Virus genome (UHGV): UHGV-1350822
From: a virus
DNA: 38,999 nucleotides
Direction: 5' to 3' (one strand)
How positions within the stretch are numbered: position 1 is the first letter of the stretch; each line of letters opens with the position of its first letter. The notes below the pieces were generated by a model, which worked only from the letters and a program-made list of their open reading frames with translations, was not told the origin of the DNA and searched no databases. Position numbers and translations under genes: made by a program. Shown here in pieces: positions 15,762-28,174 of the stretch.

Positions 15762-15868
15762 GTTGACCTCCGATGATTGACTTTGGCGGTGACGCGCCGG
15801 GTGCTTATCTTCCGGTTGCCGTCGTGCAGCTGCACTTCACGCCACCCCAAAGCCAACTACTCTTTGGT

Positions 15869-24117: not shown

Positions 24118-24302
24118 ACGCCACAATTCAAACGATACCAGAGCTTCTTATCCAGACACGAGGCAATCAGACCGAAGTGGCGAGGATGCTTTCCTGCGCA
24201 AGAGGAACGGTGCTCAAGTACAACCGAGACAGCAAAGGCGAACGTCACGTAATAGTTAACGGCGTCCTGATGGTCAAACAGGGCAAGAGGGGGAGACGAT
24301 GA
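24114..24302 (+). CDS. ninH: NinH
   Basis: TIPELLIQTRGNQTEVARMLSCARGTVLKY...VNGVLMV resembles lambda NinH. Confidence 0.75.
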   Translation: MNATIQTIPELLIQTRGNQTEVARMLSCARGTVLKYNRDSKGERHVIVNGVLMVKQGKRGRR

Positions 24303-24922
24303 GACTCGAAAGCGTAGCTAAATTTCATTCGCCAAAAAGCCCGATGATGAGCGACTCACCACGGGCCACGGCTTCTGACTCTCTTTCCGGTACTGATGTG
24401 ATGGCTGCCATGGGGATGGCGCAATCACAAGCCGGATTCGGAATGGCTGCATTCTGTGGTAAGCACGAACTCAGCCAGAACGACAAACAAAAGGCTATCA
24501 ACTATCTGATGCAATTTGCACACAAGGTATCGGGGAAATACCGTGGTGTGGCAAAGCTCGAAGGAAATACTAAGGCGAAGGTACTGCAAGTGCTCGCAAC
24601 ATTCGCTTATGCGGATTATTGCCGTAGTGCCGCGACACCGGGCGCAAGATGCAGAGATTGCCACGGTACTGGCCGGGCCGTTGATATTGCCAAAACAGAG
24701 CAGTGGGGGAGAGTTGTCGAGAAAGAGTGCGGAAGATGCAAAGGCGTCGGCTATTCTAGGATGCCAGCAAGCGCCGCATATCGCGCTGTAACGATGCTAA
24801 TCCCCAACCTTACCCAACCCACCTGGTCACGAACTGTTAAGCCGCTGTATGACGCTCTGGTGGTGCAATGCCACAAGGAAGAGTCAATCGCAGACAACAT
24901 TTTGAACGCGGTCACACGTTAG
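24299..24922 (+). CDS. Q: Late-gene antiterminator Q (lambda type)
   Basis: 207-aa protein essentially identical to lambda Q as recalled, with the zinc-finger CRDCHGTGR...CGRCKG. Confidence 0.95.
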   Translation: MRLESVAKFHSPKSPMMSDSPRATASDSLSGTDVMAAMGMAQSQAGFGMAAFCGKHELSQNDKQKAINYLMQFAHKVSGKYRGVAKLEGNTKAKVLQVLATFAYADYCRSAATPGARCRDCHGTGRAVDIAKTEQWGRVVEKECGRCKGVGYSRMPASAAYRAVTMLIPNLTQPTWSRTVKPLYDALVVQCHKEESIADNILNAVTR

Positions 24923-24964: not shown

Positions 24965-24993
24965 TTGACTTTTTGAATAAAGTTGGGTAAATT
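24965..24993 (+). promoter_or_regulatory. Late promoter pR' (-35 TTGACT, 17-bp spacer, -10 TAAATT) with adjacent Q-utilisation region
   Basis: Sequence nearly identical to the lambda pR' region. Confidence 0.8.
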
Positions 24994-25172
24994 TGACCCA
25001 ACGATGGGTTAATTCGCTCGTTGTGGTAGTGAGATAAAAAGAGGCGGCGCTTACTACCGATTCCGCCTAGTTGGTCACTTCGACGTATCGTCTGGAACTC
25101 CAACCATCGCAGGCTGAGAGGTCTGCAAAATGCAATCCCGAAACAGTTCGCAGGTAATAGTTAGAGCCTGCA

Positions 25173-25272
25173 NNNNNNNNNNNNNNNNNNNNNNNNNNNN
25201 NNNNNNNNNNNNNNNNNNNNNNNNNNNNNNNNNNNNNNNNNNNNNNNNNNNNNNNNNNNNNNNNNNNNNNNN
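25173..25272. other. Assembly gap (100 Ns) flanked by 55-bp duplicated sequence
   Basis: 25118-25172 is identical to 25273-25327; typical scaffold join across a k=55 overlap. Confidence 0.95.
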
Positions 25273-25289
25273 GAGGTCTGCAAAATGCA

Positions 25290-25346
25290 ATCCCGAAACA
25301 GTTCGCAGGTAATAGTTAGAGCCTGCATAACGGTTTCGGGATTTTT
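25290..25346 (+). terminator. tR' Rho-independent terminator
   Basis: Long hairpin CCCGAAAC...GTTTCGGG followed by ATTTTTTAT, as in lambda tR'. Confidence 0.8.
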
Positions 25347-25427
25347 TATATCTGTGCAACAGGTAAGAGCATTGAACCCGCAGACCTCGCGGAATTGGTG
25401 AAAGGTGCCGCGCAGTGCTCTTATCGT

Positions 25428-25557
25428 TGTGGTGAAGCTCAATGGCGAGCTAGCAGATAGGCGACAGTGAAAATACTAGTCATGTAGCTGACCGCCGCGC
25501 GTACTGCAATCGGCAGCGCACCGATGGAAGCCGGTTCGATTCCGGCCGCCACAACCC
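25428..25557 (+). other. tRNA-like element, possible tRNA relic (canonical T-arm and anticodon-like arm, acceptor-complementary 7-mers 126 nt apart)
   Basis: T-arm GCCGG-TTCGATT-CCGGC (25530-46); arm ATCGG-CAGCGCA-CCGAT (25509-25); 3' CGCCACA (25547-53) pairs with TGTGGTG (25428-34) next to a D-arm-like GCTC-AATGGC-GAGC; no clean cloverleaf and no encoded CCA. Confidence 0.3.
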
Positions 25558-25799
25558 AAACTGAGCCGTAGCCACTGGCTATCCTGAATTCATCAGTGAT
25601 AGTTACGCTGCTGCCTTCTACACATGATCTTCGTGAAAGCGGGTGGCAGGAGGTCGCGCTAACAACCTCCTGCCGTTTTGCCCGTGCATATCGGTCACGA
25701 ACAAATCTGATTACTAAACACAGTAGCCTGGATTTGTTCTATCAGTAATCGACCTTATTCCTAATTAAATAGAGCAAATCCCCTTATTGGGGGTAAGAC

Positions 25800-26123
25800 A
25801 TGAAGATGCCAGAAAAACATGACCTGTTAGCCGCCATTCTCGCGGCAAAGGAACAAGGCATCGGGGCAATCCTTGCGTTTGCAATGGCGTACCTTCGCGG
25901 CAGATATAATGGCGGTGCGTTTACAAAAACAGTAATCGACGCAACGATGTGCGCCATTATCGCCTGGTTCATTCGTGACCTTCTCGACTTCGCCGGACTA
26001 AGTAGCAATCTCGCTTATATAACGAGCGTGTTTATCGGCTACATCGGTACTGACTCGATTGGTTCGCTTATCAAACGCTTCGCTGCTAAAAAAGCCGGAG
26101 TAGAAGATGGTGGAAATCAATAA
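25800..26123 (+). CDS. S: Class I holin S (lambda type, dual-start S107/S105)
   Basis: [34 protein letters not shown]... essentially identical to lambda S; dual Met starts at codons 1 and 3. Confidence 0.95.
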
Positions 26124-28074: not shown

Positions 28075-28174
28075 NNNNNNNNNNNNNNNNNNNNNNNNNN
28101 NNNNNNNNNNNNNNNNNNNNNNNNNNNNNNNNNNNNNNNNNNNNNNNNNNNNNNNNNNNNNNNNNNNNNNNNNN
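28075..28174. other. Assembly gap (100 Ns) flanked by 55-bp duplicated sequence
   Basis: 28020-28074 is identical to 28175-28229. Confidence 0.95.

Follow-up and report, generated by a model that had tools for sequence, protein, structure and literature searches.

We report that UHGV virus genome UHGV-1350822, a viral DNA stretch of 38,999 nucleotides (nt) that was analysed over its full length and is called the window here, carries an intact member of an unannotated family of RNAs derived from transfer RNA (tRNA). The element occupies positions 25426-25555 of the plus strand, and the family, about 125 nt long, belongs to enterobacterial phages. It behaves as a mobile module that occurs in lambdoid late leaders, in pL/N leaders and at stand-alone loci of virulent phages. 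The evidence described below indicates that these sequences very probably form a conserved, functional structured RNA family and not a relic. For the fuller statement, that the RNA is a processed, dimerising and non-decoding tRNA mimic, our estimate is roughly 55%. The parts of the core RNA are the following.

25426-25555, plus strand: tRNA-like core, a five-helix junction that includes two extra closing pairs; 170.8 bits with our covariance model R1; equal to the commonest IMG/VR variant
25428-25434, plus strand: 5' strand of the acceptor-like stem, TGTGGTG; pairs with 25547-25553 over 7 base pairs (bp) and is lengthened by 25426-27/25554-55
25437-25450, plus strand: D arm GCTC-AATGGC-GAGC with GG in the loop; 98.7% of aligned cells paired, variation one-sided only
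25453-25507, plus strand: long extra arm; 4-bp base stem GCAG/CTGC, internal loop AUA/GCGCGUA, 9-bp upper stem 25460-67/25488-96, 20-nt apical loop
25475-25480, plus strand: apical hexamer palindrome ACTAGT, which covaries; proposed kissing-loop dimerisation site
25509-25525, plus strand: pseudo-anticodon arm ATCGG-CAGCGCA-CCGAT, the ancestral anticodon arm; variants ATCAG/CTGAT and ATAGG/CCTAT
25530-25546, plus strand: T arm GCCGG-TTCGATT-CCGGC, the loop of which fits the consensus of tRNA and transfer-messenger RNA (tmRNA)
25547-25553, plus strand: CGCCACA, which forms the 3' side of the acceptor-like stem; the next bases are ACCC, and CCA is not encoded

Conservation and covariation of the structure

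A preliminary description of this region, made from the sequence alone, had pointed to the two closing strands (126 nt from the start of the first to the end of the second), the D-arm-like motif, a 5-bp stem with a 7-nt loop and the T arm, and all of these are present at the positions listed above. Folded by itself, the window sequence gives a minimum free energy z-score of -1.3 to -2.7. Four divergent homologues each fold independently to the same five-helix junction, with z-scores of -2.7 to -4.35.

Covariation was assessed on two alignments. In a MAFFT alignment of 58 distinct sequences, 95.3% of the cells at paired positions were paired, compared to 29-47% when the partners were slid, and 17 pairs had changed on both sides, compared to 4-8 in the slid controls. 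A larger set of 79 distinct sequences was obtained by adding variants found with search patterns that left the 3' half free, and this alignment was fitted to the model. Here, 95.6% of cells were paired (30-47% in slid controls), double changes were seen at 22 of the 39 pairs (6-12 in slid controls) and the covariation score was 0.338, while slid controls reached at most 0.093. None of 500 shuffles reached the observed values. Compensatory changes were spread over the acceptor-like stem (5 of 9 pairs), the base of the long arm (3 of 4), its upper stem (7 of 9), the 5-bp arm (2 of 5) and the T arm (3 of 5). The upper stems of prophage TBE6 and of phages PdC23 and ST1UNAM are unrelated to each other in sequence and are still paired. 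At paired positions, G·U occurred in 98 cells and A·C in 13, and this large excess indicates that the selected molecule is the RNA of the plus strand. For a possible tertiary contact of the long arm's internal loop with the pseudo-anticodon loop, the alignment shows two near-invariant loops, the rare variants of which (CAUCGCA, GCACGUA) do not compensate for one another.

The preliminary description had read these motifs as a degraded tRNA gene, a split or interrupted tRNA, or a recombination scar. A derivation from tRNA stands, based on the acceptor-like stem, the D arm with its GG loop and the canonical T arm; decay does not, as the parts foreign to tRNA (long arm, internal loop and palindromic tip) are equally conserved and covary as well. 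A decaying pseudogene or a functionless scar would fit with the failure of tRNA detectors described below and with the known mosaicism of the region, at which phage modules join. It would not be expected to show compensatory substitutions in every helix except the D arm, or a core length held at 124-126 nt across 58 distinct copies. Nor would it be expected to persist in at least five contexts and several phage families. The 143-nt stretch 25413-25555 is 95% identical in about 90 Salmonella Skatevirus records, the flanks of which are unrelated to those of the lambdoid copies, and conservation and covariation hold across phages that otherwise share nothing. We therefore regard a pseudogene or scar as highly improbable.

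Distribution and genomic contexts

Pattern scans of IMG/VR, each of two returning at least 120 loci, together found the element in more than 140 phage loci. The core is also present in 175 of 5426 complete Escherichia coli genomes (about 3%), where it is always chromosomal and never annotated as an RNA; it occupies 193 places in these genomes, some of which have two copies. Only 3 GTDB species representatives carry it, among them Klebsiella pneumoniae and Enterobacter intestinihominis, with the copies of these two genera in prophages. In BLAST against phage records, HK75 and further lambdoid or P22-like phages matched over the entire segment with 97% identity, and there were copies of 77-81% identity in Salmonella phage ST1UNAM, Pantoea phage PdC23 and E. 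coli prophage TBE6. Copies fall into at least five unrelated classes of genomic context, with Q/holin, cI/N, tail or portal genes as neighbours.

Context A: late leader, as in the window, behind hairpin 1 (see below)
Context B: late leaders of other lambdoid phages, with hairpin 1 and the core bracketed by two terminator-like hairpins
Context C: pL leader between nutL boxB and N, the core being the exact interior of a long stem AGGCTTTGGGGTGTG.../...CACACCACCAAAGCT; the element is sense to pL
Contexts D and F: podovirus-like phages, between portal and terminase genes and antisense to them, in a non-coding stretch of about 650 nt with terminator-like hairpins downstream
Context E: Skatevirus, where the element runs antisense to the tail genes that border its non-coding gap, and PdC23, where the gap without coding sequence measures 800 nt

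In ST1UNAM the element is preceded by a promoter-like site, but the number of such sites scanned there is no higher than in shuffled controls. At several loci (L045:8400-8700 on the minus strand, L028, L032 and L129), hairpin 1 is preceded on its own strand by about 250 nt of non-coding sequence that is conserved and GC-rich, and the core is followed by terminator-like hairpins. This stretch, hairpin 1 and the core may form a multi-domain non-coding RNA of about 650 nt.

In every record inspected the element is unannotated or misannotated, and it has no family in Rfam 15. Spurious annotations lie on it in ON470589.1, PQ186186.1, MH321493.1 and PV340546.1; the labels seen include "polyubiquitin-A", a 58-nt "tRNA-Ser" and "hypothetical protein" reading frames on either strand. 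Genome annotators thus currently miss or mislabel it. A full-text literature search found no paper that describes the element; it may be one of the 10,006 unnamed viral RNA candidates catalogued in PMC10690425. Lambdoid phages are among the best-studied systems of gene regulation, and yet a conserved RNA has gone unannotated in both their pL-N and pR'-late leaders.

All genome-reduced mutants of Salmonella phage seszw in the phage collection (MZ3752xx-MZ3753xx) keep the element. In that study, genomes were reduced from 45.9 kb down to about 36.5 kb by targeting annotated genes, and its text makes no mention of intergenic or non-coding regions (PMC9825161). Since annotated genes were the targets, we do not take this retention as evidence that the element is essential.

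The apical palindrome

The hexamer at the tip of the long arm occurs in seven variants (ACUAGU, UCUAGA, GCUAGC, UCGCGA, ACCGGU, UCCGGA and UCUGGA) and is self-complementary in 79 of 79 distinct sequences. Its outer pair is of three types and its central pair of four. As the bases of the central pair are direct neighbours, a single molecule cannot form that pair by itself. The flanks of the hexamer in the loop are conserved and A-rich (GAAAAU and YAAGUAG), and predicted self-duplex energies of the hexamers range from -3.6 to -8.3 kcal/mol. Based on these observations, we predict that two copies of the RNA probably pair through the hexamer as an intermolecular kissing dimer. The invariant CUAG beside the D arm was considered as an intramolecular partner and rejected, as it does not covary with the hexamer.

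The hexamers are also palindromes at the DNA level, which raises the question of a DNA site for protein binding, attachment or packaging. Similarly, the open reading frames drawn over the element in some records, and one of 37 amino acids on its minus strand, could point to a small protein-coding gene. The excess of G·U over A·C is the mark of strand-specific RNA pairing, and a conserved DNA-binding protein would fix the hexamer and would not let it covary. The 37-amino-acid frame has no Pfam match, and indels of 1 nt and 3 nt between close relatives break any frame; with the RNA-type covariation, these findings led us to reject a protein-coding reading. Overall, a DNA site or a gene is the least credible of the explanations that we weighed, with almost no probability left to it.

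Comparison with tRNA and RNA-family models

The preliminary description had proposed that tRNA and tmRNA detectors be run, and neither ARAGORN nor the Rfam models recognised the element. ARAGORN called 0 tRNA and 0 tmRNA genes in the window and no copy in the 18 homologue loci scanned, and Rfam 15 at gathering thresholds gave no match in the window or the homologue loci. At E<=10, the sole Rfam match within 25274-25800 was the 17-nt T arm against tmRNA models, at 10-12 bits (the T-arm score was 10.2 bits and the gathering score is 47). Taken alone, the T-arm motif is weak evidence. The model R1, which was built from relatives, matched the core with E=1e-45; an R1 search of the window found no second copy, its other match being the N-leader stem. 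The lack of a tRNA or tmRNA covariance-model hit is one half of what the preliminary description had named as refuting its reading. The other half, a lack of homology to phage tRNA loci, does not hold, as such homology is clear: the tRNA-Ile genes of the ESCO41 type are related (see below), and in phage Skate a tRNA-Ile gene lies about 100 nt downstream of the element on the same strand.

When the long arm was deleted in silico (55 nt and one A), ARAGORN with default settings called a 73-nt tRNA-Arg(gcg), but removal of the 5-bp arm instead gave no tRNA call. This indicates that the anticodon arm of the ancestor survives as the 5-bp arm, and that the long arm was inserted at the hinge between the D and anticodon arms. 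The "interrupted tRNA" of the preliminary description holds in this sense. A BLAST search of the shortened construct against phages, for a real tRNA parent, gave tRNA matches at the level of the T arm only, and the phage collection contained no parent closer than the five-armed genes described below.

Compared with canonical tRNA, the elbow is complete: the GG of the D loop, the UUCGAxU T loop and G53-C61 are all present, and GCTC-AAYGGC-GAGC and GGTTCGAYTCC are invariant or nearly so. The anticodon loop is not. A tRNA has 7 nt with U33 and a purine at 37, whereas the loop here reads C-A-G-C-G-C-A, with A33 and C37; its last four bases, CGCA, are invariant, and positions 1-3 differ in few copies. 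At the other end, a tRNA has a 7-bp acceptor stem and a free 3' NCCA, whereas the 7-bp stem here is prolonged by 2 to about 11 covarying pairs, and the 3' tails vary with context (ACCC, ACAC, CCAC, ATCA, TACA) and share no conserved CCA. Because of A33 and C37, the lack of an encoded CCA and the extended acceptor helix, the RNA of the window is very probably not a decoding tRNA.

It could still be asked whether it is a functional, chargeable tRNA with an extra arm or intervening sequence that aids late decoding, whether as a tRNA-Arg that has been interrupted or as a relation of the five-armed tRNA-Ile. The ARAGORN call after arm deletion is in keeping with this, as are the five-armed relatives, which are annotated tRNA-Ile, encode ACCA and in one case pass the Rfam tRNA threshold. 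Against it, in addition to the anticodon loop and the 3' end, the long arm has a 20-nt loop, and ARAGORN and the Rfam tRNA model are blank on the window and on 18 homologue loci. To our knowledge, enterobacteria have no splicing system that would remove a 55-nt insert at position 26/27. The slot between the late terminator and the holin gene does hold real tRNA genes in other P22-like phages and in Stx phages, as the preliminary description had stated for lambdoid phages (PMC8022706). Taken together, we consider a chargeable tRNA very unlikely.

Relation to five-armed tRNA-Ile genes and to other RNAs

R1 also finds a relative in coliphage ESCO41, beside a tRNA-Arg, at 35.7 bits. This relative belongs to a widespread group of five-armed genes of 98-102 nt that are annotated tRNA-Ile in virulent phages of the Autographiviridae, Schitoviridae, Drexlerviridae, Ounavirinae and Demerecviridae. 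Those named are in ESCO41, PhiM1, PsgS01F, 12VC501, Arno162 and River4, and examples are located as follows.

L132:1150-1251: five-armed tRNA-Ile gene
L133:298-395: five-armed tRNA-Ile gene
L134:297-395: five-armed tRNA-Ile gene
L135:296-397: five-armed tRNA-Ile gene
L152:143-245: five-armed tRNA-Ile gene
L153:152-253: five-armed tRNA-Ile gene

These genes encode ACCA, share the T arm of the window RNA and have an acceptor stem of 7 bp that covaries. Their extra arm bears a canonical anticodon loop, CUUAUAC, and their second arm has a covarying stem with an invariant loop, CAGAUAA. ARAGORN misses them, and one alone passes the Rfam tRNA model. Both of their loops read as Ile, CUUAUAC with UAU and CAGAUAA with GAU and A33, and the two are complementary over 4 nt (UUAU:AUAA).

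The window RNA and these genes share a topology, with an extra arm between the D arm and an ordinary-looking anticodon arm. The pseudo-anticodon arm, T arm and acceptor are homologous, with 80% identity over 45 nt, and A33 is found in that arm in both. In contrast, the extra arm of the five-armed tRNA-Ile is a 5-6-bp stem with a 7-nt loop and its 7-bp acceptor is not extended, whereas in the window RNA the extra arm has grown to 55 nt and combines an internal loop with a 20-nt loop that holds the palindrome, CCA is absent, and the hallmarks of tRNA have been lost from both ends. Since both loops, the extra arm and the 3' end differ, sequence comparison places the window RNA as a sister family of the five-armed tRNA-Ile and not as a member. 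The link to these "double-anticodon" genes suggests a route from tRNA to a non-decoding RNA.

Likenesses to other RNAs are partial. YrlA, a bacterial Y RNA with members also in phages, is non-coding and imitates the elbow of tRNA with its T and D loops, as the present RNA does. The ends of YrlA, however, leave from the side of the anticodon stem as a Ro-binding helix and rsr adjoins the gene, whereas the ends here are at the acceptor stem; the Rfam YrlA model gave no match even at E<=10, and no rsr neighbour was seen at the element loci. The tRNA-like domain of tmRNA shares the T arm and an acceptor-like closing stem; unlike tmRNA, the element lacks both a tag reading frame and pseudoknots, measures 125 nt and not 260-400 nt, and possesses a D arm. 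The CI RNA of P4 and the C4 RNA of P1 and P7 are small structured RNAs in phage operon leaders that are freed by host tRNA-processing enzymes. The element is similarly embedded in a phage leader, but those RNAs use antisense pairing to nearby immunity targets and no Rfam similarity to them was found. Lastly, the HIV-1 DIS is a hexamer palindrome with flanking purines, and the phi29 pRNA uses two different loops to build a ring on the portal. The covarying self-complementary hexamer and its A-rich flanks resemble the DIS, and pRNA is likewise a phage RNA with covarying intermolecular loop pairs. Unlike either, the element has one palindrome (perhaps with GCGC motifs) on a tRNA scaffold; there is no homology, and the packaging systems are unrelated. 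Among tRNA-like non-coding RNAs, the dimerisation signature of the family is unusual.

Hairpin 1 and the closing-stem slot

In the window the core is preceded by a partner module.

25357-25429, plus strand: hairpin 1; stem CAAC-A-GG-T-AAGAGCATTG / CAGTGCTCTT-A-TC-GTTG, variable interior 25375-25412

Its stem is conserved and covaries, reading AATGGCACTG/CAGTGCCATT at locus L071, GGAGAGAGTATTTA/TAAGTACTCTCTTC at L032 and ATCGCTTTG/CAAAGCGAT at L130. Hairpin 1 is a separate module that lambda also has (L007:789-866), with an interior that differs between phages, and this interior reassorts independently of the next module. Many E. coli prophages join the hairpin-1 interior of the window to a different second module, and in ST1UNAM the interior of lambda's second module is nested inside hairpin 1 (L004:1199-1290 and 1397-1505). 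Aligned with lambda, the window is near-identical in the flanks, and two blocks, 25375-25412 and 25435-25546, have been replaced. The figure of about 165 bp of difference given in the preliminary description is therefore correct, as it comprises two replaced blocks on either side of a conserved island, CAGTGCTCTTaTCGTTGTGgTGAA.

GTTG(TG), which supplies the basal pairs of hairpin 1, also reaches into the 5' strand of the acceptor-like stem. With one CACAAC 5' of hairpin 1 and a second one where the core ends on its 3' side, GTTGTG can pair in two alternative ways, each with some compensatory support. A CACAAC-type repeat flanks the composite of hairpin 1 and core in lambda and in other composite loci; the sites of the window are 25356-25361, where the 5' copy reads GCAACA, and 25550-25555. 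The motif equals CACAACA, the consensus of the GcvB R1 target that is used by the prophage anti-small-RNA AgvB (PMC4104026). The idea of a GcvB sponge was set aside, since the motif lies in stems and the 5' site of the window is GCAACA.

In the pL/N leader of the window itself (15779-15856, minus strand), the closing stem in which other prophages carry the tRNA-like RNA, GGCTTTGGGGTGGCGTGAA...CGCGTCACCGCCAAAG, surrounds an interior of only 39 nt. In lambda, the same closing stems occur in the N leader and the late leader around unrelated interiors of 65 nt and 90 nt, respectively, which bear no relation to the tRNA-like fold. R1 on lambda matches these closing stems only (20.9 bits in the N leader and 7.9 bits in the late leader), and lambda's sequence was therefore rejected as a degenerate copy of the element. 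The recurrence of the same closing stems with different interiors suggests that the closing stem is a docking slot for alternative RNA interiors.

This arrangement speaks for the main rival explanation, a module that works purely in cis, as a compact, nuclease-recognised fold that punctuates or insulates leader transcripts and sets downstream processing, stability or translation, with no function in trans. Such a module would stand in for lambda's RNase III hairpin in the N leader and for the stem-closed structure of lambda's late leader. The N-leader copies replace exactly the interior of the stem GGCTTTGGGGTGTG...CACACCACCAAAGC, which lambda also has; the late-leader copy replaces the interior of lambda's GTTGTG...CACAAC stem; and the N leader of the window fills its stem with 39 nt, as expected of a slot for alternative interiors. 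We take lambda's N-leader stem to be an RNase III processing hairpin that regulates N, as work by Kameyama from 1991 and by Wilson from 2002-2004 is said to have established. On the other hand, the core is found in virulent phages without an N or Q system, antisense to structural genes and in non-coding loci, with a promoter-like site upstream of one such copy and terminator-like hairpins nearby. A spacer would also not need invariant internal and pseudo-anticodon loops, a constant length and a covarying palindrome. An exclusively cis-acting module is thus a possibility, but a somewhat unlikely one. If it were correct, phage leader RNAs would be built from swappable structured modules docked on conserved stems.

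Proposed mode of action

Returning to the processed, dimerising tRNA mimic, we envisage that the element would be transcribed within the Q-dependent late transcript, between tR' and the second terminator. Host processing of tRNA and double-stranded RNA (RNase P, RNase III and 3' trimming) would then cut it out, with RNase III acting in the long lower stem of the N-leader copies and RNase P and 3' trimming at the acceptor-like stem. The released element would accumulate as a stable RNA of about 125 nt; on the sequence features at hand, the odds of such an excised product are about even. It would form a homodimer through its apical palindrome and mimic tRNA in trans without being chargeable; stability and recognition would come from the tRNA body and the activity from the extra arm. 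A decoy or sponge for a host factor that recognises tRNA is a tentative suggestion for that activity. A still narrower version is speculative: the palindrome may serve as a programmable kissing loop, perhaps with a second GCGC contact, in a trans-acting decoy against a tRNA-targeting defence or a tRNA-handling enzyme, with the different palindromes marking non-cross-reacting classes. By analogy, a self-associating RNA of this kind might be a small tRNA-based counterpart of ROOL and GOLLD, phage-associated RNAs that self-assemble. If the RNA is a processed, trans-acting tRNA mimic, it would represent a new class of phage RNA, carried by about 3% of complete E. coli genomes and several virulent phage families, and a likely player in the conflict between phage and host over tRNAs.

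Several observations count against this proposal. The D arm shows no compensatory change, and the loops GCGCGUA and YAGCGCA are invariant and give no covariation. Cell counts overstate the number of independent events, because the sequences are related, and the search patterns fixed parts of the pseudo-anticodon, T and D arms. Folding of single sequences leaves the palindrome only partly unpaired, with a mean unpaired probability of 0.23-0.74 depending on the variant. The upstream CACAAC can pair with GTTGTG, so that the closed tRNA-like form may not be the sole state. No CCA is encoded, and an acceptor helix lengthened by 2 to about 11 pairs, as in several contexts, is not what RNase P prefers. 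The timing of expression is not conserved either (early from pL, late from pR'), which is at odds with a single function in trans. All that goes beyond a conserved structured RNA we infer from sequence.

Setting of the element in the window

The phage genome is P22-like (CUS-3/Sf101-like), and its late regulatory region around the element is of lambda type. Relative to the pR'-type late promoter, the element lies downstream and in sense orientation.

24299-24922, plus strand: antiterminator Q gene (Pfam PF03589 Antiterm, E=1.3e-57)
24965-24993, plus strand: pR'-type late promoter TTGACT-17-TAAATT, found by consensus scan
25292-25348, plus strand: tR' terminator hairpin CCCGAAAC...GTTTCGGG with T run, identical to lambda in the alignment
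25645-25679, plus strand: second terminator-like hairpin of the late leader, GGCAGGAGGT...ACCTCCTGCC with GTTTT, identical to lambda in sequence and alignment
25800-26123, plus strand: holin S gene (Pfam PF05106, E=2.4e-30)

In unaligned sequence, the surroundings of the promoter read the same as lambda L007:576-604. The hairpin at 25292-25348 we take to function as the tR' terminator, as established for lambda. The second hairpin was missed by the consensus scan because its loop exceeds 8 nt.

Two further observations concern the records themselves. Locus L128 (JAUVQU010000080.1), a 9.7-kb contig from a metagenome-assembled genome assigned to the Cellvibrionaceae, carries exact window-type sequence and is probably a mis-binned enterobacterial phage contig. 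In the window, runs of exactly 100 N occur at 25173-25272 and again at 28075-28174. On either side of the first run stands one of two exact copies of 55 nt (25118-25172 = 25273-25327); these are contig ends that overlap and were joined by a scaffolder (k=55), and relative to lambda no sequence has been lost there.

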